A DNA stretch of 24,000 nt from Clostridia bacterium (GTDB lineage Bacteria > Bacillota > Clostridia > Oscillospirales > CAG-272), in contig JAFUQU010000041.1 in NCBI GenBank assembly GCA_017472255.1, positions 154 through 24,153 on the forward strand, written 5' to 3'. Positions 2,073 through 18,146 of this stretch are shown one piece after another (the stretch's first letter is position 1; each line of letters starts with the position of its first letter). Made by a program: the position numbers and the translations under genes. The notes under the pieces are model-generated. The model saw only the letters and a program-made list of their open reading frames with translations, had not been told where the DNA came from and did no database searches.

Positions 2073-2329
2073 GAAAGAACTTTTGCACGCAAAGCGAGTT
2101 AGAAGTGTCCCGATTTGCCGTAAGGGGTAGGGACCCCTGGAGGACAAATCGCTCTGGGACGCTTAGCCTGTGTACGCGCACGCTTCGTCTGCGCTGCACT
2201 CGCGAACAAGTTTGAAGCGTTCCTTCGTGGGTGAAGAGCATTCCGGGACGGTAAACCGTCCCGAAGGAACGCCAAAACATCCCTCACCATAAAGCTTTTG
2301 CACAGCTTTTCACGAAAAGCGCGTACCCC
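2073..2329. repeat. Right arm of the inverted-repeat element
   Basis: Its reverse complement aligns with 1706-1965. The arm ends 25 nt upstream of the terL ATG. Confidence 0.9.
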
Positions 2330-2354
2330 CCTACCAGAAAGGACTGAATCACAA

Positions 2355-3632
2355 ATGATATTACACGGCAAGCCTAATCCGAAGCAGGCGGAATTCTTCC
2401 GGTCTACTGCGAAGTTTACTGCATACGGCGGCGCGCGGGGGGGCGGCAAGAGTTGGGCGCTGCGGCGGAAGCTGATTGCGCTATGTTTGAGGTATGCGGG
2501 CATACACTGTCTGATTATAAGGCGGACGCTGTCTGAGCTGAGGCAGAATCATGTGATGCCGCTGCTTGCGGAGCTTGGCGGACGGGTGGCGTGGTCGGCT
2601 GGTGAACGGGAGTTTACCTTTGCCAACGGCAGCCGGATTACGCTGGGGTATCTTGCCTGCGATGCGGACACGCTGCGCTATCAGGGTCAGGAGTACGACA
2701 TTATCGCCATTGACGAGGCGACGCAGCTTACCGAGTATCAGTTTTCGACGCTGAAGGGCTGTCTGCGCGGCACGGGGAAATTTCCCCGCCGGATGTATCT
2801 GACCTGCAATCCCGGCGGCGTGGGACACGCCTGGGTCAAGCGTCTGTTTATTGATCGGGATTTCCGGGAGGGCGAGAATCCTTCCGACTACCGATTCATT
2901 CAGGCGCTGGTTTACGACAACGACGTGCTGATGGATTCCGATCCCGATTACGTTCACTCGCTGCAAAGCCTTCCCGATCATTTACGGGCGGCGTGGCTGG
3001 AGGGGCGCTGGGATTTATTCGAGGGGCAGTTTTTCCCCGAGTTTTCGAAGGAACGCCATGTATGCGCGCCTGTCGAGCTGAAATCAAGGCGGCGGTTCGC
3101 TGCTTTTGACTATGGATTTGACCGCTTTGCCCTGCTCTTTTGCTGCATGGAGGGGGATATGCTTTACGTCTACCGCGAGTTCTGCAAGTCGGGGCTGACC
3201 CTCTCGCAGGCGGCGGGGGAGTTGGCGCGGCTCTGTGATGCTGACCGGCAGCGGGGGTTTGATATCGCTTATGCGGTGGCTTCCCCCGATTTATGGAACC
3301 GGCGGCAGGATTCGGGCTACAGCGGTCAGGAGATCATGTCCCGCACCGAGGGCGTGCCGCCTCTTTTGCGGGCGGACAACCGCCGCATTCCCGGATGGCG
3401 CGCCTTACGCGAGACGCTGGACGGGCATCTGCGCATCTTTGAAGGGTGCCGGGAGCTGATTTCGTCCATGCAGGCACTTCTCTGCGACCCGGCGATTCCC
3501 GAGGACGCCTCGGGCGAACCGCACGCTGTGACCCACGCGCCGGAAGCGCTTCGCTACGCGGTGATGTCCCGTTCGGGCGATCGCTGCGATGTGCGGGTTG
3601 ACCGCACAATCGGCGGGCTGGCGAATTTCTGA
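2355..3632 (+). CDS. Phage terminase large subunit
   Basis: It has a Walker A motif (YGGARGGGKSWA), a Walker B-like motif (YDIIAIDEAT) and a C-terminal nuclease-type region. The ATG at 2355 (MILHGKPNPKQAEFF) is preferred because the ORF-track start at 2298 lies inside the repeat arm. Confidence 0.9.
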   Translation: MILHGKPNPKQAEFFRSTAKFTAYGGARGGGKSWALRRKLIALCLRYAGIHCLIIRRTLSELRQNHVMPLLAELGGRVAWSAGEREFTFANGSRITLGYLACDADTLRYQGQEYDIIAIDEATQLTEYQFSTLKGCLRGTGKFPRRMYLTCNPGGVGHAWVKRLFIDRDFREGENPSDYRFIQALVYDNDVLMDSDPDYVHSLQSLPDHLRAAWLEGRWDLFEGQFFPEFSKERHVCAPVELKSRRRFAAFDYGFDRFALLFCCMEGDMLYVYREFCKSGLTLSQAAGELARLCDADRQRGFDIAYAVASPDLWNRRQDSGYSGQEIMSRTEGVPPLLRADNRRIPGWRALRETLDGHLRIFEGCRELISSMQALLCDPAIPEDASGEPHAVTHAPEALRYAVMSRSGDRCDVRVDRTIGGLANF

Positions 3633-3727
3633 GATTCGCCGCTGACAACGATATATCCGCCTCGCGGGGTGCACACTGCGGGGTGCATATATAAATACAT
3701 TACCTACCAAACAGGAGGACAAAAACT

Positions 3728-4552
3728 ATGGCAATTTCCAACTTCATCCCCACCGTCTGGAGCGAGACGCTCCTGAGCGAGCTTGACCACGACTACATCG
3801 GCGTGCGCAACTGCTCCCGCGACTTTGAGGGCGATATCCGCGGCAAGGGTTCGTCCGTCAAGATCAACGGCATCGGCGACATCTCTGTTTTCGACTACAC
3901 CAAGGACACCGATATGCAGACCGCGCAGGATCTGTCCGACACCTCTCAGACCCTGCTCATCGATCAGGCAAAGGCGTTCAACTTCCAGATTGACGACGTT
4001 GACCGCGCCCAGTCCACCCCCAAGCTGATGCAGGCTGCCATGAGTCAGGCTGCTGCGGCTCTTTCCGATGTGGCTGACGCTTATGTCTACTCCCTCTACA
4101 AGAATGTCGCTCCCACGAACACCATCGCCTACAGCGAAATCGTTGCCGAGGACGTGCTGGACATTCTGCTTGACGCCCGCCGCGTCCTGCTCTCCCACGG
4201 CGTGAACAGCAACATTCCCACTTCGCTGGAGGTTTCTCCCGAGGTGGCGGCGCTGATCATCAAGTCCAAGATTCTCAACAACTCGGACAACACCGCCGCT
4301 CTGGAAAACGGCGCGCTGGGCAGCTTTATCGGCTTCGACGTCTACGTTTCCCCCAACATCGCCGTGGTGGACAACCGCTACAAGTGCCTTGCCCGCACCA
4401 AGCGTGCCATCGCGTTCGCCGAGCAGCTCAACGAGGTGGAGGCTTACCGCCCCGAGAACCGCTTCGCCGACGCGGTGAAGGGTCTGCATCTCTACGGCGC
4501 AAAGGTGGTTTACCCCGACGAGGTGGTGCTGCTTGACCTGAGCGTCGGCTGA
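3728..4552 (+). CDS. Phage major capsid protein (HK97-fold type, small)
   Basis: The RBS AGGAGGA is strong. The N-terminus MAISNFIPTVWSETLL resembles the N-terminal signature recalled for some phage coat proteins. The gene sits in the head module and is followed by a hairpin. Confidence 0.65.
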   Translation: MAISNFIPTVWSETLLSELDHDYIGVRNCSRDFEGDIRGKGSSVKINGIGDISVFDYTKDTDMQTAQDLSDTSQTLLIDQAKAFNFQIDDVDRAQSTPKLMQAAMSQAAAALSDVADAYVYSLYKNVAPTNTIAYSEIVAEDVLDILLDARRVLLSHGVNSNIPTSLEVSPEVAALIIKSKILNNSDNTAALENGALGSFIGFDVYVSPNIAVVDNRYKCLARTKRAIAFAEQLNEVEAYRPENRFADAVKGLHLYGAKVVYPDEVVLLDLSVG

Positions 4553-4574
4553 TTCATACGCTGACTTCGTCTGC

Positions 4575-4600
4575 GGCGGGACGGCTCACGCCGTCCCGCC
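4575..4600 (+). terminator. Hairpin after the capsid gene (possible partial terminator or stabiliser)
   Basis: A 10-bp GC stem ggcgggacgg/ccgtcccgcc has a 6-nt loop. The following T-tract is weak (taccttatt). Confidence 0.3.
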
Positions 4601-4623
4601 TACCTTATTAAGGAGAGATTTTT

Positions 4624-4962
4624 ATGACCTGCAACAATATTTACGAAAAAGCATTGGCATTGATCGGCGATATGCCGACGGACGCGGGAACCGAATATTA
4701 CGCCGACCGCGCCCCCGCCCTGCTTTCGATGGTGGTGCGCGAATACGCCCCCATCACCGGAACGGTGGTGCCTGAAATTACGTCGCTGGACGCTTCTTTT
4801 CCGCTGGACGACCGGCTGGCTCCTCCGGCGGCCATGCGGCTGGCGGCGCTGCTTATCATCGACGAGCTGCCCGGCACCGCCGAGGTGCTGAATTCCTCCG
4901 CCGCACGTTCGCTTCAGGCGGTCTGGGGCGCGGAGATTTCGTCGATCAAAGAGGTATACTAA
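4624..4962 (+). CDS. Phage structural protein, possible head-tail adaptor or head completion protein
   Basis: RBS AAGGAGAG. The ORF is 112 aa, sits between the capsid gene and a large structural ORF, and has 1-nt spacing to the next gene. No diagnostic motif was found. Confidence 0.55.
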   Translation: MTCNNIYEKALALIGDMPTDAGTEYYADRAPALLSMVVREYAPITGTVVPEITSLDASFPLDDRLAPPAAMRLAALLIIDELPGTAEVLNSSAARSLQAVWGAEISSIKEVY

Positions 4963-4963
4963 A

Positions 4964-6664
4964 ATGAGCGAGCCGAAGAAACACATCTTTGACGATTTCT
5001 CCTCCGCCGCGCGGATCGACAACTTTCGCGTTACGGCCGACAAACGGCTGGAACAGCGGGGCGGCACCGCGCTGATTCACACCTTCGACGCGCCGCTTCG
5101 GGGGGCGCTGACCGTGGGCGTCAGCGACGGCGAGGAGATTTACGCCGTTTCGGGCAGCAAGCTTTGGCGGCTTACCGAGGCGGACGGGGTATTCACCGCC
5201 GTGTCGCTGGGCACGCTGGAGGACGCGGCGTTCGCGGACGAAAACGAGCGGGTGGAGATGTTCCTGTTCACCGGGAAGCTGTACATTCTGGGCGGCGGGA
5301 ACTATTACTGCTGGGACGGCAGCGCACTGTCCGTGGTGGAGGGTTACATCCCTCTCTGGCGGCGATATTCGGGCGCGACGGGGGGGAGCCAGGCTTACGA
5401 GCGGCGCAATCTGCTGACCAACCGGGTGCGGGAACGCTTCTGCCCCGACGGGGAGAGCCGGGAATTCAAGCTTTACGGCAAGGCGGTGTCGGTGGAATCG
5501 GTTTGGGTTTCCGGCACGAAGCTGGAAACCGATATGTATTCGGTGCGCTTCTCGGAAAACACCGGCTACGTGGAGATGGCGCTCATCTACTCCGAAAATT
5601 CCAACGACATCATTGAAATCTACTACACGTTAGTGGACGATGGACGCCGTTCCGACGTAACCTCCTGTCCCCACGCGGCGGTTTACGGCGGCGACACCGA
5701 CACCCGCGTGTTCCTTTACGGCGGCAGCAACCGCTCGGTCATCTACCCCACCGATCTGGTGGGCGCGGAGGATACGCCCGCCATTTCCGCCGAATACTTC
5801 CCCATTGGCGCGGACATCACCGTGGGTGATGGCAATCTGCGGGTGACGGGCGCGGTGCGGCAGTTCGACCGGCTGGCGATTTTCACGGAGGAGGGGGCGT
5901 TCTACACCTATCCTTACGATGCGGGAACGGTCAACGGCATCCAACGCTTCACCTACCCCATTCTGCCGCTGAACTCGGATGTGGGCGCTACCCGGGAGGG
6001 CGGCGCGGTGCTTCTGGAAAACGAGCCTTACGCGCTGAATCCCAACGGGCTTTACCGCTTCAAATCCACGTCGGTGCGGGACGAGCGTCTGGCGGTGCGG
6101 GTGGAAGCGCCGGATTTCATCGGTCTCGATCGGGAATTCATCGACGCCTGCGGGCTTTATGTGAACAAGCTGCGGGGCGAGCTATGGTGCTATCACAACG
6201 GCGTGATGGCGATTTACAACGCTCGGCTTGATGTGTGGTACCGTTTCACGGGGGTTGATCCGCACTTTATGTTCACGTACCAGAGCGAGGCGGCGTTCGG
6301 CGAGGGTAATTCGCTGTACCGCTTCGGCGAGGGGCTGTACGACGACGAGGGTACGCCCTTTACGGCGCAGTTTGTCAGCCTGCCGCTGGATCTGGGGGCT
6401 GCCTTCGAGCGAAAGACGATCTACGGCTTTGGCGTATCGCTGGAGCGGCGTCCCAGCGCGTCGGTGATCTGCTCCCTTTCCACCGATCTGGGCGGCGAAT
6501 GGTCGCACACCTTTACGCTGGACGAGGGGGACGGCAGCACGCCTGTGGTATGCCATTCCCACGCGCGGCTGGGGCGGGTGGCTTACGCGGTATTTTCGCT
6601 GGAGGCGCCCGGCGGCTGCGATGCTTCCGTCGGCGTCCGCGAGGTGATGGTCGAGGTGAGGTAG
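4964..6664 (+). CDS. Phage virion protein of unknown function (566 aa; possibly tail-hub, nozzle or stabilisation-like)
   Basis: The composition looks coding and an RBS (aagagg) is present. The gene lies within the head module. No catalytic motifs were recognised. Confidence 0.7.
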   Translation: MSEPKKHIFDDFSSAARIDNFRVTADKRLEQRGGTALIHTFDAPLRGALTVGVSDGEEIYAVSGSKLWRLTEADGVFTAVSLGTLEDAAFADENERVEMFLFTGKLYILGGGNYYCWDGSALSVVEGYIPLWRRYSGATGGSQAYERRNLLTNRVRERFCPDGESREFKLYGKAVSVESVWVSGTKLETDMYSVRFSENTGYVEMALIYSENSNDIIEIYYTLVDDGRRSDVTSCPHAAVYGGDTDTRVFLYGGSNRSVIYPTDLVGAEDTPAISAEYFPIGADITVGDGNLRVTGAVRQFDRLAIFTEEGAFYTYPYDAGTVNGIQRFTYPILPLNSDVGATREGGAVLLENEPYALNPNGLYRFKSTSVRDERLAVRVEAPDFIGLDREFIDACGLYVNKLRGELWCYHNGVMAIYNARLDVWYRFTGVDPHFMFTYQSEAAFGEGNSLYRFGEGLYDDEGTPFTAQFVSLPLDLGAAFERKTIYGFGVSLERRPSASVICSLSTDLGGEWSHTFTLDEGDGSTPVVCHSHARLGRVAYAVFSLEAPGGCDASVGVREVMVEVR

Positions 6665-6724
6665 GAACGGCCGGCGGGCTGCCGTACACCCACAAAATTT
6701 TCACACTACAAAAGGAGGACACAT

Positions 6725-6856
6725 ATGCTTATTTTCCTTTACCTGCTTGGCTTCCTTACGGGAGCGGCAGCGGCTGCGCTGGTCGGCTTTCTGCGCAAAA
6801 GGCGCAGAAAGCCCCCTTCCCTCGATGACGAGATGCGCAGCATTTTACAATATTAA
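6725..6856 (+). CDS. Small single-pass membrane protein (43 aa), absent from the ORF track
   Basis: AAAGGAGGA lies 6 nt upstream of the ATG. The product is MLIFLYLLGFLTGAAAAALVGFLRKRRRKPPSLDDEMRSILQY: one hydrophobic helix followed by a basic stretch. The stop codon lies 12 nt before the portal start. Confidence 0.5.
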   Translation: MLIFLYLLGFLTGAAAAALVGFLRKRRRKPPSLDDEMRSILQY

Positions 6857-6868
6857 GGAGGATTTACC

Positions 6869-8392
6869 ATGCAAAACAACATTTCCTGGCGGCAGTTCGA
6901 AGCCGGCCGCGAGTACAACCAGCGGATCGGGCTTTACCAGAACGCCGCCGTCAACGAACGCTTCTATCGCGGCGATCAGTGGAAGTCGGTCAACGCTTCC
7001 ACGCTTCAGACTCCCGTCTTCAACATTGTCCGGCGCATTACCGATTATCTGGTGGCGCAGGCGGCGGCTTCCAACGTGGATATCGTTTACTCGGACGAAA
7101 ATCTCCCCTTCGTGCAGGATGAGGACACCCGCGCGCGCATCGCCGAAGCGGTGGCGCTGCTTAATCGCAACGCCGCCTATCGCTGGGAAAAATGCCGCCT
7201 CGACCGGCTTGTCCGCCAGCTGCTTTTGGACGCGGCTCTTACCGGCGACGGCGTGCTTTTCACCTACTGGGATCCGTCCATCGTAACCGGGCAGGCTTAC
7301 ACCGGAGATTTCGTTACCACCACCGTGGACGGCGCGAATCTGTTCGTGGCGGACGTGAACTCCACCGATTTGCAGGGACAGGCGTACATCATTCTGTCCG
7401 GTCGGGCGGCGGTGAGCGAGCTTCGGGCGGAAGCGCTGGATCACGGCGCGTCCCCCGACGACGCGGCGAAGATTCTCCCCGATGGCGATCTTCACTACGG
7501 CGCGGGCGACTGCGCGGCGCTGGAGAACACCGATGTGTCCATGGAAAAGGCAACCTACATCATCAAGTTTTACCGCAACCGGGCGGGCATCGTCTGCTTC
7601 GAAAAATCCACCCGGGACTGCATCATCCGCACCGCCGAAACCGGGCTCCGGCTCTATCCCGTGGCGATGATGAACTGGATTCCCACGAAGAATTCCTATC
7701 ACGGCACCTCGCCGGTCACGTCGATGATTCAGAACCAGAAGTATATCAACAAGGCTTACGCTCTGCTGATGAAGCATATGATCGACACCGCCTTTTCCAA
7801 GGTGATCTACGACAAGACCCGCATTCCCGAGTGGACCAACGAGGTCGGGCAGTCCATCGGCGTGGTGGGCGGCGATCTGAACGGCGTGGCGACCACCGTT
7901 TCGCCGGGCGCCATGGACGAACGGTTCGGCGAGGTCATCGACAGCGTGCTGACCCACACCAAGGAGACCATGGGCGCTACCGACGCTTCCCTGGGCGAGA
8001 CCAATCCCACCAACACGTCGGCAATTGTGGCGCTCCAGGAGGCTAATTCCGTTACGCTGGATTCGGTGCGCGGTTCGCTGTACAACTGCCTGGAGGAGCT
8101 GGCGGCCATCTGGGTGGACTTTATGTGTGCTTATTACGCGGACGGGCGGATGGTGCTGTCCGGCGAGGGCGTGGCGGCGTTCGACTGCCGTTTGCTGCGT
8201 GGCGAGCTGATTTCCGCACGGGTTGACGTAGGCTCGGCGACCCGCTTCTCCAAGGCGTCGGCGCTGGCGGCGCTGGACAAGCTGCTGGACGGCGGGCATA
8301 TTACGCTGAAGCAGTATCTGGAGCGCCTGCCCGACGGGGTGATTCCCATGCGCGCCCAGCTGATCGACGAGGTGAGCGGCGATGGACGATAA
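6869..8392 (+). CDS. Phage portal protein
   Basis: RBS AAGGAGGA. The N-terminal motif NERFYRGDQW is characteristic of portal proteins. The size is 507 aa. The long minus-strand ORF 6845..8527 is an antisense shadow. Confidence 0.8.
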   Translation: MQNNISWRQFEAGREYNQRIGLYQNAAVNERFYRGDQWKSVNASTLQTPVFNIVRRITDYLVAQAAASNVDIVYSDENLPFVQDEDTRARIAEAVALLNRNAAYRWEKCRLDRLVRQLLLDAALTGDGVLFTYWDPSIVTGQAYTGDFVTTTVDGANLFVADVNSTDLQGQAYIILSGRAAVSELRAEALDHGASPDDAAKILPDGDLHYGAGDCAALENTDVSMEKATYIIKFYRNRAGIVCFEKSTRDCIIRTAETGLRLYPVAMMNWIPTKNSYHGTSPVTSMIQNQKYINKAYALLMKHMIDTAFSKVIYDKTRIPEWTNEVGQSIGVVGGDLNGVATTVSPGAMDERFGEVIDSVLTHTKETMGATDASLGETNPTNTSAIVALQEANSVTLDSVRGSLYNCLEELAAIWVDFMCAYYADGRMVLSGEGVAAFDCRLLRGELISARVDVGSATRFSKASALAALDKLLDGGHITLKQYLERLPDGVIPMRAQLIDEVSGDGR

Positions 8393-8570
8393 GCAGCTCT
8401 CCCCCGAGGAAATCAACGCCGCCAATGCCGCCGCGTCCACCGGGCGTGTCCGGGATGACGGGCGGGGCGCGGTGTTCTTCACCGAAGCGGACGTCCGCGC
8501 GATGACGTCGAAGCAGGTGCGCGCCAACCTGCCCCGGATTCTTCAATCCATGAGCAGCCGGGAGTTTTAA
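8382..8570 (+). CDS. Hypothetical phage protein (62 aa), possibly a truncated N-terminal fragment
   Basis: The start overlaps the portal stop. RBS GAGGTGA. The stop codon lies exactly at the GC-to-AT compositional junction. Confidence 0.45.
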   Translation: MDDKQLSPEEINAANAAASTGRVRDDGRGAVFFTEADVRAMTSKQVRANLPRILQSMSSREF

Positions 8571-8580
8571 GAGGAAATTG

Positions 8581-8628
8581 ACTGTATTTCATGAGATGCT
8601 ATTATGTCAACGTCTCATGAAATACAGT
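8581..8628. promoter_or_regulatory. Inverted repeat (16-bp perfect arms) overlapping the cassette promoter
   Basis: The arms are actgtatttcatgaga (8581-8596) and tctcatgaaatacagt (8613-8628), separated by a 16-nt loop. The right arm abuts the -35 element. This is a candidate operator or an upstream-operon terminator. Confidence 0.5.
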
Positions 8629-8656
8629 TGACAAAACGCAAAGATTATTATATAAT
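8628..8656 (+). promoter_or_regulatory. Consensus sigma-A promoter
   Basis: Exact TTGACA-N17-TATAAT. Confidence 0.7.
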
Positions 8657-8676
8657 ATTTCAAGGAGATTAGATAA

Positions 8677-8826
8677 ATGTTGACAAATCAAAATACCCTT
8701 TGGGTTTATCGTTGCCGTTCTACTGATTCATGCAATGCATGTAGAAAATATGATAGGAAAGTATTCCATGAAAATGATGCCCAAAACTACCGCTACACCC
8801 CAATTGCAGATGTTATTATGAATTGA
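8677..8826 (+). CDS. 49-aa Cys-motif protein, absent from the ORF track
   Basis: AAGGAG lies 8 nt upstream of the ATG. The product is MLTNQNTLWVYRCRSTDSCNACRKYDRKVFHENDAQNYRYTPIADVIMN. The C-x5-C-x2-C...KVF stretch resembles the conserved core of Mu-F/SPP1-gp7 head morphogenesis proteins; this is recalled, not searched. Confidence 0.45.
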   Translation: MLTNQNTLWVYRCRSTDSCNACRKYDRKVFHENDAQNYRYTPIADVIMN

Positions 8827-9605
8827 TATCATCTCAAAATGGGGTACTAATACCTACAGCAATCCCCTCTGTACCTTCATCTCAGAATAATCCTACTGAA
8901 GCTATACCCGAACTTGATATTGAACCTATACACACCTCTTCCGTATCATTGCCAAGTGAACCAATGAAACACATAGATGAATCTATTGTTCCTCAATCTC
9001 TTAGCTATGTGATGAGTGTCAATGAGGCGTTTGATATCATGAATGAATCTGACAATTTGACTCATGTCAGTGATCAAATGATCGAATTACTCAAAAAATA
9101 TGAAACACAATATTCAAGATATTTGATTAAAGATGTACAGGGTAATATAATCGGGATAAAACCGCATGATGTTGGAGACGGTGGAATCACCGTTGGTTTT
9201 GGACACTTTATTAGCAATAAAGAATTACGAACTGATGCTGAAGCCTATAAACTTGCACAGCGCAACTTGTCAGTGGAAGAGGCCACCGCTATAATGAAAA
9301 CGGACTTGGAACGTTTTGAAAAGCAAATACTCAATCTTATGAAAAGGAATGAGATATATCTTGTTCAACATGAGTTTGACGCACTTGTTCTGCAAGCCTA
9401 TAACTATGGTAATGTTAATTACCTTACGGATTTGTTGAAATCAGGAAATCGTGACCGTAATAAGTGGATTGAAGTCATCACAGAACGGATGGAAGTTAAT
9501 AAAGGTAAATTCTACAATGGATTGATGAATCGCAGGTACCAGGAAATGGATTTATTCTTATATGGCGATTATAATGGAGGGCCTGATGTTATTAAATATC
9601 CGTAA
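8823..9605 (+). CDS. GH24 phage-type lysozyme (muramidase) with a Pro/Ser-rich N-terminal extension
   Basis: GH24-like signatures are present: KKYE...GGITVGFGH...EFDALVLQAYNYG...GLMNRRYQEMDLF. The ORF-track start is a TTG that overlaps the upstream stop codon (TTGA). In-frame ATGs at 8964, 9012 and 9039 lack strong RBSs, so the start is uncertain. Confidence 0.8.
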   Translation: MISSQNGVLIPTAIPSVPSSQNNPTEAIPELDIEPIHTSSVSLPSEPMKHIDESIVPQSLSYVMSVNEAFDIMNESDNLTHVSDQMIELLKKYETQYSRYLIKDVQGNIIGIKPHDVGDGGITVGFGHFISNKELRTDAEAYKLAQRNLSVEEATAIMKTDLERFEKQILNLMKRNEIYLVQHEFDALVLQAYNYGNVNYLTDLLKSGNRDRNKWIEVITERMEVNKGKFYNGLMNRRYQEMDLFLYGDYNGGPDVIKYP

Positions 9606-10203
9606 AATTATGCTTGTCACATTAACATTATGGTATGTGAGTATGCTAACTTCATGTTATCACATACAGCAAGATGTTACTGGAAGTGTGTATTTGGTGA
9701 AAATTTCACCTGCATCCGTTCAATCACATACAACGAATAAATGCGACTATCCCGAAATTCACTTGCATGTTGAATCCAACATATCCAATGATTCACGGGA
9801 CGTTGCCGAATATATCGCTCCCGTTCAAGCTGATACAGCCGCAGCTGATCCGGTCGCGCCCGCTCAAACCGCGCCCGCTCTGCCTGAGCCGGATCTTCCC
9901 GAGCCGGACGGCTCCACCGCGTCCATGCTGGCTTACGCCGAGGGTGCCCTCGCCCACTGGCAGGCGCTGGCGGTGTCGCTGCTGGACGAGCGCCCGGAGC
10001 TGGCGGAGGATTACGCCGCCTTCCTCGCGGCGCTGGATGCGGAGGTTGACGTCTATCGGGAGACCTTCCGCGTGGAGGACAGCGACCTTTACGGCAGCAG
10101 CAGCCTTTACGGCAGCAGCAGCCTTTACGGCAGCGCGGTCATTTACGAATGCGTCTGGCTTCGCGCCGTTCGGACGCGGGAGTGGCTGGAGGCACAATGG
10201 TAA
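9586..10203 (+). CDS. Putative lipoprotein, a compositionally chimeric ORF
   Basis: GGAGGG lies 6 nt upstream of the ATG at 9586. The signal peptide has a lipobox (SMLTSC). The N-terminal ~70 codons are AT-rich and the remainder is GC-rich and Ala/Pro-rich. The ORF contains an LYGSSS tandem repeat. Confidence 0.5.
   Translation: MLLNIRKIMLVTLTLWYVSMLTSCYHIQQDVTGSVYLVKISPASVQSHTTNKCDYPEIHLHVESNISNDSRDVAEYIAPVQADTAAADPVAPAQTAPALPEPDLPEPDGSTASMLAYAEGALAHWQALAVSLLDERPELAEDYAAFLAALDAEVDVYRETFRVEDSDLYGSSSLYGSSSLYGSAVIYECVWLRAVRTREWLEAQW
10086..10134 (+). repeat. 18-bp in-frame tandem repeat (about 2.7 copies)
   Basis: cctttacggcagcagcag occurs twice, followed by the partial copy cctttacggcagc. 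The repeat encodes LYGSSS-LYGSSS-LYGS. Confidence 0.9.
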
Positions 10204-12205: not shown

Positions 12206-12373
12206 TCAGGCATTGATGCTTTTGGCAAGCTGTTCAACCTCGGAAAGAGGGATCTTGGTCATGTCAACAATATCAGAAATTGGATATATTTTCTTATGCA
12301 GCATACGTGTAGCAATCTCAATCGCCTTCTTTTTTTCACGCTCGGCAAGCGCTTCTTCCATAATACGACACAT
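12206..12373 (-). CDS. 55-aa protein corresponding to the C-terminal tail of Rpn-family nucleases (RpnS-like)
   Basis: GGAAGGAG lies 8 nt upstream of the ATG at 12373. The product is MCRIMEEALAEREKKKAIEIATRMLHKKIYPISDIVDMTKIPLSEVEQLAKSINA, which matches the recalled C-terminal helix-rich tail of Firmicutes Rpn/PD-(D/E)XK putative transposases. Confidence 0.55.
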   Translation of the reverse strand: MCRIMEEALAEREKKKAIEIATRMLHKKIYPISDIVDMTKIPLSEVEQLAKSINA

Positions 12374-12505
12374 AGTATGCACTCCTTCCGTTTTTTCCTT
12401 AACACTGCTGTTGTAACGGGCACGTTTGGCGGTCGCACCCTCATCCCGGCGCTGAACTTCAATGTTGTACCGCTTGCCCAGACCGTCTACAGCAAATACA
12501 TCCAG
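12374..12505 (-). pseudogene. Remnant of an Rpn-family PD-(D/E)XK nuclease core (N-terminus missing, internal deletion)
   Basis: The in-frame segment RLDVFAVDGLGKRYNIEVQRRDEGATAKRARYNSS fits the D...IE.Q...R..YY core pattern. It has no start codon, and roughly 150 aa that normally separate the core from the tail are absent. Confidence 0.5.
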
Positions 12506-12515
12506 CCGTACTCTA

Positions 12516-12543
12516 ATTATACCACACCTCCCCCGCCTGTCAA
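12516..12543 (-). promoter_or_regulatory. Near-consensus sigma-A promoter driving the Rpn remnant and small ORF
   Basis: The minus strand reads TTGACA-ggcgggggaggtgtgg(16)-TATAAT. Confidence 0.6.
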
Positions 12544-12790
12544 CAAATATTTTGTAAAAAACCAAACGACTGTACATCTCCCTCCCCCACTATCCGCCAA
12601 ACAAAAAGAAATAACACCCCCTCCCCCCGCCTAACGCCTCAAACCCCACCAAACGTGCGTTGACCGCGTTGTCCGCAATAGCCGTTACCAGCGGGCGTTC
12701 GTTGTTCGCACAATAAATTCGCCCAGACAAGCTAAGAAAAGGAATCCCCGCAGCACAATTATGAGTGCGGGAGAATGGTGAGAGGGGAGT

Positions 12791-12992: not shown

Positions 12993-13637
12993 ATGTCCAT
13001 ATTGTCCGATCTCAGCGAAGCATTGCAAAAAGGCCGCCTGCCTAAAATTAAGGAGCTGACTAACGCCGCCCTCGCTGAAGGTATCCCCGCAAAGGAAATC
13101 CTCGATGACGGCCTTCTCGCCGGAATGTCCGTCATCGGCGAAAAATTCAAGAATAATCAAGTCTATGTCCCCGAGGTCATGATGGCCGCACGATGTATGC
13201 AGGCGGGTACCGATCTGCTGAAACCTCACCTCACCGCAGGCGAAACCGCACAGTCCTGCGGCACCGTCGTCATCGGCACCGTTAAAGGCGACCGCCACGA
13301 TATCGGTAAAAACCTCTGTAAGCTCATGCTGGAGGGAAAAGGTCTGAACGTTATCGATCTTGGCGTCAACGTCAGCGCGGAAAAGTTCGTCTCCGAAGCC
13401 CAGAAAAACGGCGCGCAGATCATCTGCTGCTCCGCCCTGCTCACCACCACCATGCCCGAAATGAAGCGGGTCGTTGAAGTCGCCGACGCCGCCGGAATCC
13501 GCGATAAGGTGAAGATTATGATCGGCGGCGCACCCGTTACGCAGGCTTACTGCGATACCATCGGCGCCGACTGCTATACCACCGACGCCGCTTCCTGCGC
13601 CGACGCCGCCGTCACGCTGGCTGCACAAATTTCGTGA
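12993..13637 (+). CDS. Cobalamin-binding corrinoid protein (methyltransferase-cognate, MtaC/MttC-like)
   Basis: RBS GGAGGA. The B12-binding motif is GDRHDIGKN (DxHxxG), followed by SALLTTT and GGAP. No partner methyltransferase is adjacent. Confidence 0.85.
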   Translation: MSILSDLSEALQKGRLPKIKELTNAALAEGIPAKEILDDGLLAGMSVIGEKFKNNQVYVPEVMMAARCMQAGTDLLKPHLTAGETAQSCGTVVIGTVKGDRHDIGKNLCKLMLEGKGLNVIDLGVNVSAEKFVSEAQKNGAQIICCSALLTTTMPEMKRVVEVADAAGIRDKVKIMIGGAPVTQAYCDTIGADCYTTDAASCADAAVTLAAQIS

Positions 13638-13645
13638 GGAATAAG

Positions 13646-13672
13646 AAAACCGACCCGTGAGGGTCGGTTTTT
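13646..13672. terminator. Bidirectional intrinsic terminator
   Basis: aaaaccgaccc-gtga-gggtcggttttt, with an A-tract on the left and a T-tract on the right. It lies between convergent genes. Confidence 0.8.
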
Positions 13673-13674
13673 GG

Positions 13675-14253
13675 TTATCGAGGGGAGAGCTTGTCCAGCT
13701 GAATCACGGATTTTCCGGTGAGGAGGTCGATTTTTTCCTTGTACAGAAGCGTCCATACCGCCTGCCCAACGGTATAGTCCTTGTCCTCGCGAGGGAAAAA
13801 GGAGCGGCAGAAATAGGTGTCCGTCTCTTTGTTTCGATTGATGAACAGGTAAACATCTACATTGCTGTGCGGTGTGGACAGGAGATAATCTGCTTCAATT
13901 TTAGAGAATTTCTGTTGATCCCTGTTGTAGCGGAAAATCAGTTCATTGGAGTCCAAAATGGTTTCAATGTCGAATAGATGTGAAAAACGATTGACTATTT
14001 CATCATAATATCTGCTTTTGGAGATAACGGTGTCCTTCAGCCGACCGCGCAGAATATTATCAAACACAATCTGACGATTCTGCGATGCGATATGTAAATC
14101 CTTCAGCTTACCGAGCCCCATGAGATGATGGAAGTCCAGAGGCGTGAAGGTTAATGTTATTTCCTTTAAGACACCTTTACGTCCAATAACCATGCGATAT
14201 TTCGTATGCAGCAGCTTTTCAAATCCTCTGGCGCATACAAGCAGTCTGTCCAT
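13675..14253 (-). CDS. Predicted nuclease of the phage Barnase-EndoU-ColicinE5/D-RelE-like type (PBECR4-like), 192 aa
   Basis: The gene is AT-rich. RBS GGAGAGG lies 10 nt upstream of the ATG at 14253. The pattern ITLTFTPLDFHHLMGLGKLKD...SKIEADYLL...FCRSFFP matches my recollection of PBECR4-family proteins, but this was not searched. Confidence 0.6.
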   Translation of the reverse strand: MDRLLVCARGFEKLLHTKYRMVIGRKGVLKEITLTFTPLDFHHLMGLGKLKDLHIASQNRQIVFDNILRGRLKDTVISKSRYYDEIVNRFSHLFDIETILDSNELIFRYNRDQQKFSKIEADYLLSTPHSNVDVYLFINRNKETDTYFCRSFFPREDKDYTVGQAVWTLLYKEKIDLLTGKSVIQLDKLSPR

Positions 14254-14446
14254 ATGCAGGAATCCTCTCCAGATAGTAAAATCGGCTGTTGCAAAGCGCA
14301 ACAGCCGATTAGCATTTTCTTTCGGCTTGCGCCTACTCCGGCTCGAGGTTATTGCTAAACCCCTACTGAAAGCTCCATGCAACAAGGCAATCCGGTACGC
14401 TGCTGCATTTCAACGCTTGGACAGATACACGCCGTTATCTGTCGGT
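14254..14446 (-). promoter_or_regulatory. Structured 5' leader or small RNA upstream of the nuclease gene
   Basis: Hairpins are GACAGATA/TATCTGTC (14443-14420), ATGCAGCA/TGTTGCAT (14408-14377), GGC-GCAA-GCC, and then a terminator. Segment 14406-14389 is a degenerate copy of the terminator 3' arm and is a candidate antiterminator. Confidence 0.45.
14278..14310 (-). terminator. Intrinsic terminator or attenuator immediately upstream of the nuclease RBS
   Basis: On the minus strand a 13-bp perfect stem AATCGGCTGTTGC/GCAACAGCCGATT has loop GCTTT and runs into TTTT. Only 7 nt separate it from GGAGAGG. Confidence 0.7.
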
Positions 14447-14452
14447 ACTATT

Positions 14453-14481
14453 ATTATACACCATCCGCGCGATTATGTCAA
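14453..14481 (-). promoter_or_regulatory. Consensus sigma-A promoter
   Basis: The minus strand has an exact TTGACA-taatcgcgcggatggtg(17)-TATAAT, starting 20 nt after the blaR1-like stop codon. Confidence 0.7.
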
Positions 14482-14501
14482 GCCCCTGTGCGAAATTTTT
14501 C

Positions 14502-17500
14502 TCACAGCGCATAACCGCCCAGACCGCGCCTCATGTTGCTGACGATCGTCCAGCTGTCGATGCAAAATCCGCCGCCGGAGAGCGGCGTCAGCGTGTAGCG
14601 AGTGGTGCGCGCTTCCATGGTGCAGGATTCGTCGGTGAAGAAGCGAACCGTGACGTAGTACTTCCCGTCCGATTCTTCCTCGCTCAGTACCGAGCTGTAG
14701 ATATAGCTGCCGCCGTGTCCGTCGTGATTGATGGTGCTCTGCTTCGCCAGACCATTCGTCACCGCCTGCCCGAAGTAGCGCTGGCAGTATTCGGCAAATT
14801 GCTTGCCCGTCGTCACCTCGTCGCAGTAGCCCTGACGGCTGAGCCAGCCGAAGAAATCCAGCGCGTTGTGCTGTACAACGTCGATGCTGCCGTCATAGCG
14901 TCCGGTACCGTTCAGCGTAAAGCTTTCCGGATAGGTCGAGCCGCCGTAGCAGGCCGCGAACTGGTACGCCCACTTCCCCGCCTCGGTCACAGGCTTGCTC
15001 CCGAAGCCGAAGTCCAGCGCCAGACCGTTCATGCCGGTGCCCAAAATGATGGAATAGCTCCCCGGCGGAACCAGCGTCACGCCGCTTTTTGTAATCTCCA
15101 CCTCCAGCGTCAGGCTGGACAGATACTGCTCCCGCATATTGGTCCGCAGAATCCGATAGCCGCCAAACTCCATGCTCTCCCATTCGGCGTAGGTTCCCTC
15201 CTCCACGCCGATCAGCTCCTCCAGCGCGGAGACATCGTTGGTAAGGAAGGCGCACAGCCCCCTGTAAACGGTATTTTCCCCGTAATCCTTCCATCCCAGC
15301 TTGGCGAAATCCGCGATGTCGTCCACCGAAACCGGGTCGTCGATGCCGGGATAGTCGATTTCACTGACGTGAAAATCCGAGAAATAGTCGCCCCGGTTCC
15401 AATCGCCCAGCCCGTAGATTCGGTAGGCGGAGAGATAGGCGTCCTCGGTGGTCAGCGTGTAGGTGACCCGGAAGTTCAGCTCGTTGCGCAGCTCGTAGTC
15501 CACGCTCAGCGCGCCGTCCGCCAGATGCTCCGCCGCGTAGCCCGCCGTGTCCAATGCGCCCAGCAGTGCGGCGAGCGTGTCTTCGTCCCGCAGAACGATG
15601 TCGATGTCCTTCTGGTCGTCGTGGAGCGTCACAGTCCCATCCGATTCCGTCACCGTCAGCTGGGCGTCCTTCCAGACTCTGGACGCTTCGCCCACCGTCC
15701 AAGTCGCGCCGTCATCCTCGGATACCCAGGTCAGCGAAGTATAGTTAGCGCAGGTCATCGACAGGCAGAGCCGCCCGTCCTCCTCCCGCCAAAGCGACTG
15801 CACATAAGCAGTTCCCTCGTCGTACAGGCGTTCCGGAACCGTCAGCTCCAGCCAGCGCCAGGTTTTCCCGTCCGACGTAAACTGAATCAGCGGCGTGTCC
15901 GGCGGGTCGGCAAAGGAATGGAAGGTCAGCATCCCCGTCGTTTCATCGGCAAAGGCGACGATTTCCAGATAGTTGTGCATCGCCATGGCGGGACGCGCCG
16001 GATCGTCGGTCTTTACCCAGCTTATGCCGCCGTCGCTGGTCATGTAAACTTCGGTGCGCACCAGCCAGCTTTGGAGCACCAACGCCCCCGCGCTGTCCGA
16101 AATCTGCACGAAATGCACGTTCGCGCCCGTTTCCAGCAGGCTCGCGGCAAGGTAGGCGTCCTCGTCCTCCGGCCAATGCTCCACCGGATTTCGCGGCACA
16201 CTGGTGAACAGACAGTCCCCGTCAATTTCGCCGTCGCCCAGACTGCCGGGCAAACCCTCGATTTCGCTGAAGCGCAGCTCGTGATCGCAGGTGACGCTGA
16301 CATCGTCCGGAATGGCGTCCGGCGCGATGTAAAGCACGCCCTCGGGAATGGCATAGCTGTCCCCGTCGCCGGTGTATTTCAGAAGCATCCGCCCGTCGGC
16401 GGTGAGAATCGCGTCGCCGGTATCGATGAAGGTTCGCTTCTGCCCCACCGAGCAGGCGAAAACCGTTCCCAGCGACAGGCAGATCAGCACGATCGACACG
16501 ATTAATATCCGCCCGCTCCGCTTTTTCGACCCGTCCAGAATCCAGGCAAAGCGCGCCTTGACCGCGTTTTTGCGTGGGTTGAAGTGGGTGGTCAGGGACG
16601 CGGGAGCGCGAGGTGACTTCGCCCGTTTGATCATCGCCAGAAGCGCTTGACCATAGCTGCCCCGCACTTCGCCGGACATTCCCGCCAGCACCATCTCGTC
16701 GCAGGAAAGTTCGCAGGTCTCCTGCGCCCTCGACGCAGCCAGATGCACCAGCGGGTTGTACCAGTGCAGCCCCTGCGCCAGCGTAATCAGCGTTTTCCAG
16801 AAAAGATCATGCCGGCGGTGGTGGCAAAGCTCGTGGGCCAGTACCACGGTCAGCGTAGAATCGCTCATTTCGGCGGCGTAAGCCGGCAGAATCAGCCGGG
16901 GGCGTATCAATCCGCAGAGCATGGGGCTTGCCGTGGCGTCGGAAACGAACAGGCGGGGCGGGCGCTTCACGCTCTGCGCCGCGCAGAAGCGGGCGTAGAG
17001 GGATTTCAGCCGATCGTCGGTGGCGCGGGGCTTTAATTTTGCCGCCCAGAGCGCGTATCCGCCGAACCGCCAGATCAGGAATCCCGCCGCTCCCGTCAGC
17101 CACGCCGCCGCAGCGATGTTCAGCAGGTCGTCGGTGTCAATGGAAAGACTGCGCCGGACAGGTTCGGCAGAGGGCGTTTCGATGGGCGTGGTTTCCGTCG
17201 GCGCGGATGTCTCTACCGGCTCGGTTTCGATTGATTCGGCTTCGGTCGGCTCGGTTCCAATGGGCGGCGCGGCAGGCTCGGAGCGCGTCACCTGAACGGA
17301 GGCGGGCAGCTCCACGCGGATGGGAGCGTAGGACCCGCTGTCCGCCGACGCGGGCAGTAATTCCGTCAGTCCCAGCGGCAGCAGAAGGCGAAATGCCAGC
17401 ACCAGCCAGAGAAGATACCCGCACCTCGCCGAAAACCGCCGCCCCACCAGCCGTTCGACCAGCAGCAGCGCCAGCGCGCAGATACTTACCAGCGCGGAAA

Positions 17501-17533: not shown

Positions 17534-18001
17534 CTACTCCTTGTTTTTGCGATTGTGAAGCATTTCCTCCAGCTCGGCGATGTCCTCATCCCCCAGCTCG
17601 TCGCTGTCGATAAGGGACGCCACCAGCTTCTTCCACGAACCCCGGCAGACCCGCTCCACGAAGCTGTGTGAGGCGAAGCGCCGGTAATCCTCCTCGCCGA
17701 TGAGCGGGCGGTAAACCTTGCGCGGGTTGGGCGCGGGGGAATCCTCCCGCTCCATTTCGAGAAAGCCGCGCCCGGTCAGGCGCTCCAGCAAGGTATGCAG
17801 CGTTGCCTTGCACCGCCGCGTTGCCTTGCACCGCCGCGTTGCTTTGCACTGCCGCGTTGCCTTGCACTGCTGCGCTGCATTTGTCTTGATCGCGTCGAAT
17901 TGCCATTGGTCGTAAATTTCCGCCACGGTGATGGGCGGCGTGCAGTGCCAGACGATCATCATGACCTCCAGCTCAGCGTCGGGCAGATGTGGGATATTCA
18001 T
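17534..18001 (-). CDS. BlaI/MecI/CopY-family winged-helix repressor with an internal hexapeptide repeat
   Basis: The N-terminus is LPDAELEVMMIVW...ITVAEIYDQW, and the motif LHTLLERLTGRGFL is present. The gene is translationally adjacent to the M56 sensor gene. Confidence 0.85.
   Translation of the reverse strand: MNIPHLPDAELEVMMIVWHCTPPITVAEIYDQWQFDAIKTNAAQQCKATRQCKATRRCKATRRCKATLHTLLERLTGRGFLEMEREDSPAPNPRKVYRPLIGEEDYRRFASHSFVERVCRGSWKKLVASLIDSDELGDEDIAELEEMLHNRKNKE
17801..17872 (-). repeat. 18-bp in-frame tandem repeat, 4 copies, inside blaI-like gene
   Basis: The plus-strand units are cgttgccttgcaccgccg x2, cgttgctttgcactgccg and cgttgccttgcactgctg. They encode (C)KATR(Q/R) repeats just N-terminal to the recognition-helix region. 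Confidence 0.9.
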
Positions 18002-18045: not shown

Positions 18046-18074
18046 ATTATAACATAGGTATAGACGTTTGTCAA
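18046..18074 (-). promoter_or_regulatory. Consensus sigma-A promoter of the blaI/blaR1-like operon
   Basis: The minus strand has an exact TTGACA-aacgtctatacctatgt(17)-TATAAT. RBS AAGGAGG lies downstream. Confidence 0.7.
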
Positions 18075-18117: not shown

Positions 18118-18146
18118 TTGACATCGGAGCGGGTTTTTGCTATCAT
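18118..18146 (+). promoter_or_regulatory. Sigma-A promoter of the deacetylase gene
   Basis: TTGACA-N17-TATCAT. Confidence 0.55.

Follow-up and report, generated by a model that had tools for sequence, protein, structure and literature searches.

What is the function of a structured RNA that lies between a consensus promoter and an intrinsic terminator, directly upstream of a gene for a predicted RNase? A locus with this arrangement is found in a 24,000-nucleotide stretch of contig JAFUQU010000041.1 from a Clostridia bacterium (hereafter, the window; all coordinates for the locus are window positions, and all its elements are on the minus strand). We report that the RNA is drum (RF02958), that the gene encodes a PBECR4 protein (PF18813), and that the two form a strictly conserved unit. 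Of the functions we considered, a type III-like toxin-antitoxin (TA) system, with drum as the RNA antidote and PBECR4 as the protein poison, best explains the data, ahead of roles for drum as an RNA cofactor or as a purely cis-acting leader; we put its chances at about even.

An Rfam scan identified positions 14418–14307 as drum RNA, with a score of 92.4 bits (gathering score 43; E = 5.5e-18) and a match across positions 1–112 of the 112-position model. At the curated threshold, no other Rfam family was detected in the window. Hence, the leader is not an unknown element, as had been supposed in an initial annotation made from the sequence alone. Drum was described in 2017 as having a terminator on its 3ʹ side and as linked to a nearby protein, its function then being unknown, and that paper places it, together with skipping-rope RNA, in a small set of bacterial RNAs that stand out for their strong conservation (Weinberg et al. 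2017, PMC5737381).

The fold of the RNA is supported by extensive covariation. In the window, helix P1 of the drum core pairs 14418–14415 with 14373–14370, P2 pairs 14408–14397 with 14388–14377, and P3 and P4 are located further 3ʹ. Across 70 distinct sequences, 92.5% of cells in P1–P4 are paired and double changes occur in 20 of the 23 base pairs, values matched by none of 500 shuffles. A pseudoknot joins the P2 loop (CCGG, 14395–14392) to a second CCGG downstream (14341–14338); 99.3% of its cells are paired, and all four pairs have compensatory double changes. The variants include CCAG:CUGG, CCGA:UCGG and CUGG:CCAG, with no pair altered on one side only. An additional 5ʹ hairpin, P0 (14443–14420; stem GACAGATA/TATCTGTC, loop ACGGCGTG), is within the transcript and outside the Rfam model. 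P0 is kept in homologous loci, with 97.3% of cells paired and compensatory double changes in six of eight pairs.

The RNA is embedded in a compact transcription unit. The sigma-70-type promoter (14481–14453) matches the consensus at 12 of 12 positions, with TTGACA at 14481–14476, a 17-nt spacer, and TATAAT at 14458–14453. It starts 20 nt past the TGA (14504–14502) of a 1009-amino acid Peptidase_M56/BlaR1-like open reading frame (ORF). Judged from the promoter, transcription probably starts near 14446, and the predicted transcript (14446–14274) has a folding energy of −62.8 kcal/mol (z = −3.4), better than all of 200 shuffles. The intrinsic-terminator hairpin (14310–14278) consists of 13 perfect pairs between AATCGGCTGTTGC (14310–14298) and GCAACAGCCGATT (14292–14280), with loop GCTTT and a short U run. 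A consensus scan made no terminator call on this strand because the U run is only four residues long (14281–14278), two of which are inside the stem. The PBECR4 gene (14253–13675; 192 amino acids) begins 24 nt past the terminator, preceded by the Shine-Dalgarno (SD) sequence GGAGAGG (14270–14264) 10 nt upstream of the ATG; homologs have a purine-rich SD at the same position. Directly past the stop codon is a terminator-like hairpin (13671–13646) with an 11-pair stem, including six G-C pairs, and a T-rich tail. There are no tandem repeats in 13600–14520. These features agree well with the initial annotation, which had drawn the promoter and its distance from the BlaR1-like stop codon, a structured transcript of ~170 nt, a perfect 13-bp stem followed by TTTT, a leader lacking tandem repeats, and a nuclease of the PBECR type.

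Assignment of the protein to PBECR4 is clear. The match to PF18813 has an E-value of 5e-39 and a score of 135 bits (cut-off 27), and spans positions 2–187 of the 188-position profile. No other Pfam family matches at E-values up to 1, and there is no match of the ToxN/AbiQ/CptN/TenpN type. PBECR4 is annotated as an RNase in its Pfam description, and the active site predicted for PBECR domains combines a helical His with a C-terminal Ser/Thr (Iyer et al. 2017, PMC5512222). Invariant residues among 25 sequences include F41-H42-H43-L44, R89, S151 and T168. In a confident AlphaFold2 model (AF2; mean predicted local distance difference test score, pLDDT, 90.7), H42 and H43 are in helix 38–45. H42/H43 and S151/T168 may correspond to the predicted active site and are candidate catalytic residues; the invariant His-His, Ser and Thr support the prediction of a metal-independent RNase. 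The 310 close homologs are nearly all solo proteins of ~190–220 amino acids from Clostridia, and the wider family (1,528 clusters at 50% identity) is likewise overwhelmingly made up of solo proteins. A profile search of PDB sequences with PBECR4 gave no match, PHROGs gave one weak match to a family without an assigned function, and INPHARED (GenBank phages) gave no BLAST match to the protein or to the RNA, BLASTN being weak for a 147-nt RNA. We rejected an alternative in-frame TTG start (14385; 236 amino acids), which would cross the conserved RNA, since homologs begin at MDKL. The 2017 paper on drum hints at DUF3800, a domain described as RNase H-like, but Pfam gives no DUF3800 match to the window protein at E-values up to 1.

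Is the association of drum with PBECR4 general? We collected 80 genome loci encoding PBECR4 relatives, of which four have the gene at a contig edge and 76 include upstream DNA. Drum was detected with the Rfam model directly upstream, on the same strand, in all 20 loci tested. A covariance model built from those 20 matches placed it in the same position in 76 of 76 loci, with strong matches in 70 and weak ones (22–29 bits) in six distant loci. The same is true of plasmids from Enterococcus and Streptococcus suis (three of three; 46–52 bits, above the Rfam threshold), although their PBECR4 proteins are only 31–33% identical to that in the window; these loci share the −10 box, the 5ʹ hairpin, the terminator and the SD. 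In total, drum is upstream in 79 of 79 PBECR4 loci with upstream DNA, at protein identities down to 31%, and we found no PBECR4 gene without drum in any such locus. The carriers are chromosomes, integrative and conjugative elements (ICEs) and plasmids, from several phyla. Some cassettes in ICEs adjoin a relaxase gene, and plasmid copies are found near genes for AbiH, single-stranded DNA-binding protein (ssb) and a Y-family polymerase.

The architecture of the unit is as strictly conserved as the pairing of its two genes. At least 10 of 12 promoter positions match the consensus in 74 of 77 loci, and all 12 match in 50. In 71 of the 77, the promoter is 29–35 nt, usually 35 nt, upstream of the start of the Rfam model. 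In nearly all homologous loci, the drum core is followed immediately by a G+C-rich hairpin and a U/C tract. The hairpin arms vary but remain complementary, and this covarying terminator usually ends ~20 nt upstream of the start codon. The modal distance from the end of the drum core to the ATG is 47 nt, a space that holds the terminator hairpin and the SD. As the initial annotation had argued for the window, there is no room for a separate promoter. The conservation of this layout makes the predicted expression of PBECR4 solely by read-through a conserved design feature. Our description of drum differs from that in the main text of the 2017 paper, according to which the motif is rarely in 5ʹ untranslated regions (UTRs) and its associated gene may be to either side of it, or on either of the strands (Weinberg et al. 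2017, PMC5737381): PBECR4 loci have drum directly upstream on the same strand, and their transcripts have a conserved P0 and a consensus promoter at a fixed distance, both outside the Rfam model. The window RNA is otherwise a typical full-length member, with a terminator on its 3ʹ side and a single associated protein family. Our search of the literature, which took in the main text of the 2017 paper though not its supplement, where the drum-associated protein is named, found no published link between drum and PBECR4, no published function for drum and no experiments on the PBECR4 family. Relative to that literature, PBECR4 as the partner of drum, the fixed design of the transcription unit including P0, and orphan phage copies in tRNA arrays (see below) are new.

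The initial annotation had proposed a three-state attenuator in which 14406–14389 pairs with the 5ʹ arm of the terminator, and is itself sequestered in the hairpin ATGCAGCA/TGTTGCAT. We used RNAduplex to compare pairing of the 5ʹ arm and the upstream RNA with that of shuffled arms, and to compare native with non-native combinations of loci. In the window, pairing of the arm with 14406–14389 has an energy of −13.7 kcal/mol, against a shuffled mean of −10.9 (z = −1.2), and 10% of shuffles are as good. For 47 distinct loci, the median z-score is −0.26, only five loci are at or below the 5% level, and the best partner site moves. Native and non-native combinations of arm and RNA gave −9.66 versus −9.11 kcal/mol and −8.70 versus −9.29 kcal/mol. 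Native arms thus pair no better than non-native arms, and the arms vary while the RNA is near-constant; therefore, there is no conserved antiterminator pairing. In the conserved drum fold, ATGCAGCA/TGTTGCAT forms helix P2; none of the drum helices is overlapped by the terminator, and the proposed antiterminator shows no covariation. We reject the three-state attenuator. In a separate observation, the minimum-energy fold of 23 of 51 distinct loci (e.g. L003:500–550 and L012:3951–4003) allows the SD AGAGAGG to pair with the pyrimidine tract past the terminator, CUUUCUUU. This pairing is weak, at about −2 kcal/mol, and is not seen in the window.

Loss of the two partners is not symmetrical. A reverse search with a drum sequence pattern yielded 120 metagenome loci, 104 of which, including two viral loci, have sufficient downstream DNA. 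PBECR4 is intact, directly downstream and on the same strand in 45 of these, disrupted or truncated in 39, and missing from 20; no metagenome drum locus has PBECR4 on the opposite strand. Dereplication of metagenome and genome loci together gave 114 lineages, of which 66 have only intact PBECR4, eight are mixed, 22 have only disrupted copies and 18 have none. Hence, PBECR4 was never seen without drum, while many drums are solitary or have only a dead gene next to them. This is the pattern expected of a poison and its antidote.

Several drum loci have other arrangements. One lineage (≥95% identical) is present in ten independent metagenome contigs (L089, L100, L138, L143, L153, L154, L172, L174, L194 and L199), all of which keep drum with a PBECR4 gene cut to its first ~74 residues. 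Two loci, L107 and L152, have two drums each, ~530 nt apart, without PBECR4. At L060, two extra drums (4775–4886 and 5155–5267; Rfam scores of 86 and 81 bits) follow PBECR4 without an ORF of their own, and precede a flagellin-like gene on the opposite strand. At L123, an orphan drum (484–604) with its own promoter and terminator is followed, ~200 nt downstream, by a canonical type III TA locus (800–1665), which consists of a promoter, 3.2 repeats of 35 nt (882–993), a terminator hairpin and the gene for ToxN (PF13958; E = 3e-50).

Orphan drums occur in phages, too. We confirmed 20 drums on viral contigs; four are with PBECR4 and 16 are orphans. Seven of the 16 orphans are between tRNA genes, two more are within ~0.5 kb of a tRNA gene, and the contigs carry phage-family genes. 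Since these RNAs have no downstream PBECR4 gene, regulation in cis is excluded for them; they are consistent with an RNA that acts in trans to the benefit of the phage. Phages are known to carry a pseudo-ToxI that mimics the antitoxin of ToxIN, which is an analogous situation. Large phage contigs with drum inside tRNA arrays include L081, L082, L083, L217, L227 and L229. At L082, a tRNA-Val gene starts 1 nt past drum, with no terminator between them. L081 also carries a skipping-rope RNA (RF02924; 55.7 bits) at 6142–6233, which starts 1 nt past a tRNA-Leu gene; skipping-rope RNA may be carried in phage tRNA arrays for a similar reason.

How might drum and PBECR4 work together? We propose that the near-perfect, constitutive promoter would produce an RNA of ~170 nt that comprises P0, the pseudoknotted drum core and the terminator hairpin. 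Most transcripts would stop at the terminator, leaving the RNA in excess, and PBECR4 mRNA would arise only by read-through. A terminator in this position favours an excess of RNA, as is typical of an antidote. The drum RNA would then act in trans on PBECR4, most likely by binding and neutralising a putatively toxic RNase, and it may do so by mimicking a conserved RNA substrate of the enzyme. Such a pair would serve maintenance of mobile elements and/or phage defence, as a type III TA or abortive-infection module.

This proposal has close precedents. The type III TA systems ToxIN, CptIN, TenpIN and AbiQ share the order of promoter, abundant non-coding RNA (ncRNA), Rho-independent terminator and RNase toxin gene expressed by read-through. 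They differ from the drum-PBECR4 pair in that drum is a single, pseudoknotted RNA of ~170 nt rather than a set of tandem repeats, and PBECR4 is not ToxN/AbiQ-like. The layout is identical in RCd22/AbiF of Clostridioides difficile, which has a SigA promoter, a structured ncRNA, a terminator, a ribosome-binding site and a toxin gene, and lacks a promoter inside the unit. Experiments on that system showed that RCd22 restricts expression of the toxin in cis by termination, and neutralises the toxin in trans by binding (bioRxiv 10.1101/2025.04.15.648962). The RNA of that system (abiF motif, RF03085) carries another motif of the 2017 survey, whereas Rfam detects only drum here, and the protein is Abi_2 rather than PBECR4. 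PBECR domains have been treated as effectors delivered by invading elements, with no mention of an RNA partner (Iyer et al. 2017, PMC5512222). The window protein belongs to PBECR4 and has candidate counterparts of the predicted active-site residues, and some copies are on ICEs or plasmids, but the family is overwhelmingly solo, with lengths of about 190–200 amino acids.

An alternative explanation, which we regard as rather unlikely, is that drum is a cofactor (structural, guide or activating) or a processed substrate of a PBECR4 ribonucleoprotein. The linkage and orientation of the two genes would be the same as for a TA pair, and the unusual conservation of unpaired nucleotides and the pseudoknot is what one would expect of the core of a functional RNA. 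Moreover, to the authors of the 2017 paper the motif suggested a “sophisticated biochemical function” (Weinberg et al. 2017, PMC5737381). However, wide persistence of drum beside decayed or absent PBECR4 genes would be unexpected for a cofactor, as would its orphans in phage tRNA arrays, and the terminator between drum and PBECR4 points to an antidote. Less probable still is a purely cis-acting riboswitch or protein-responsive attenuator that gates the terminator. In PBECR4 loci, drum is always in the 5ʹ UTR with a terminator immediately 3ʹ, as in known riboswitches and attenuators; its conservation resembles that of an aptamer, and in about half of the loci the post-terminator tract can pair weakly with the SD. 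Nonetheless, known systems of this kind differ from drum in having a gene to regulate and an antiterminator to do so. No antiterminator is conserved here, the terminator is separate from every drum helix, and there is nothing to regulate in cis for orphans that have a promoter and terminator of their own, for extra copies in tandem or for phage copies that lack a downstream gene. A riboswitch was also judged improbable in the main text of the original description (Weinberg et al. 2017, PMC5737381).

It is very improbable that drum is an independent small RNA and that the hairpin before PBECR4 just serves to end transcription of the upstream blaI-blaR1-like operon. The stretch from the BlaR1-like stop codon (14502) to the promoter holds no clear terminator, such that upstream transcription may also end at this hairpin, and orphan drums do exist. 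However, the unit of promoter, RNA, hairpin and gene recurs in diverse surroundings, none of which includes blaR1. The initial annotation had offered a type III-like TA system as one of two readings. The order of elements and the comparative data fit it best; the drum RNA, which is single-copy and without tandem repeats, and the protein, which is not ToxN-like, do not resemble the known systems.

Those two departures from the known systems count against a TA function, as do several other observations. Conservation is much higher in the RNA than in the protein (mean column identity of 83% versus ~55–60%), whereas the known type III antitoxins vary along with the toxins they neutralise. This conservation may point to a conserved cellular partner, or could reflect substrate mimicry. 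The assignment of PBECR4 as an RNase derives from the Pfam family annotation: a BECR fold would be expected to resemble solved RNases such as colicin D/E5, RelE and barnase, but a Foldseek search of the PDB gave no significant match (best E-value 0.16, with RelE/YoeB/HigB only at E-values of 1–2). None of the PADLOC defence models matches the window protein. The genes next to plasmid and ICE copies (those for ssb, a Y-family polymerase, a polyvalent helicase and a relaxase) would also fit an anti-defence effector or a role in establishment of the element. Lastly, the counts of decayed genes come from a pattern search that requires an intact RNA motif, in metagenome assemblies that may hold frameshift errors.

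The window carries an ordinary, intact copy of the drum-PBECR4 cassette. The cassette sits between the BlaI/BlaR1-like operon and a gene for a corrinoid protein, as an island of low GC content (0.42–0.47, versus 0.57–0.65 in the flanks). We read 14481–13646 as a self-contained, horizontally acquired two-gene cassette. The nearest mobile-element genes, ~4 kb past its downstream end, are a cluster of phage-like genes on the plus strand (2298–9605), including those for a terminase large subunit, a capsid protein, a P22-like portal and a lysozyme; this cluster may be a prophage remnant or gene-transfer-agent-like. An ORF adjoining the lysozyme-like gene (9562–10203, plus strand) has a short tandem peptide repeat, SSLYGSSSLYGS. 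A second exact consensus promoter, TTGACA-N16-TATAAT with a TG motif, is in a low-GC stretch at 12516–12543 on the minus strand. Downstream of it are a short ORF (12206–12577, minus strand) that ends in KIPLSEVEQLAKSINA and a terminator-like hairpin at ~12195–12170. No Pfam family matches this ORF, which on visual inspection looks like the C-terminal end of a remnant of an Rpn/PD-(D/E)XK-type gene. Upstream of the blaI-like gene is a third exact consensus promoter, also with a TG motif (18046–18074, minus strand), which faces a divergent promoter with an 11/12 match (18118–18146, plus strand) of a polysaccharide deacetylase gene. The BlaI-like repressor itself (17534–18001, minus strand) matches Penicillinase_R from residue 65 onward only, and its N-terminal insertion consists of four tandem 6-residue repeats (QCKATR QCKATR RCKATR RCKATL).

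Taken as a whole, our data suggest a broader picture that we put forward tentatively, with less confidence than the TA function itself: drum would be a single-copy, pseudoknotted antitoxin for a BECR-fold RNase, the pair would constitute a new and widespread type III-like TA or abortive-infection family on ICEs, plasmids and chromosomes of Firmicutes and spirochaetes, and phages would counter it with orphan drums in their tRNA operons. Tying drum to a defined partner makes the question of its function testable, through the toxicity of PBECR4 and its neutralisation by drum. If the picture is correct, RNA-antitoxin systems would no longer be confined to repeat arrays, and would take in a large structured RNA as well as a new toxin fold. 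A function could be assigned to PBECR4, to date no more than a predicted domain, and counter-defence would account for the presence of drum genes in the tRNA arrays of phages.

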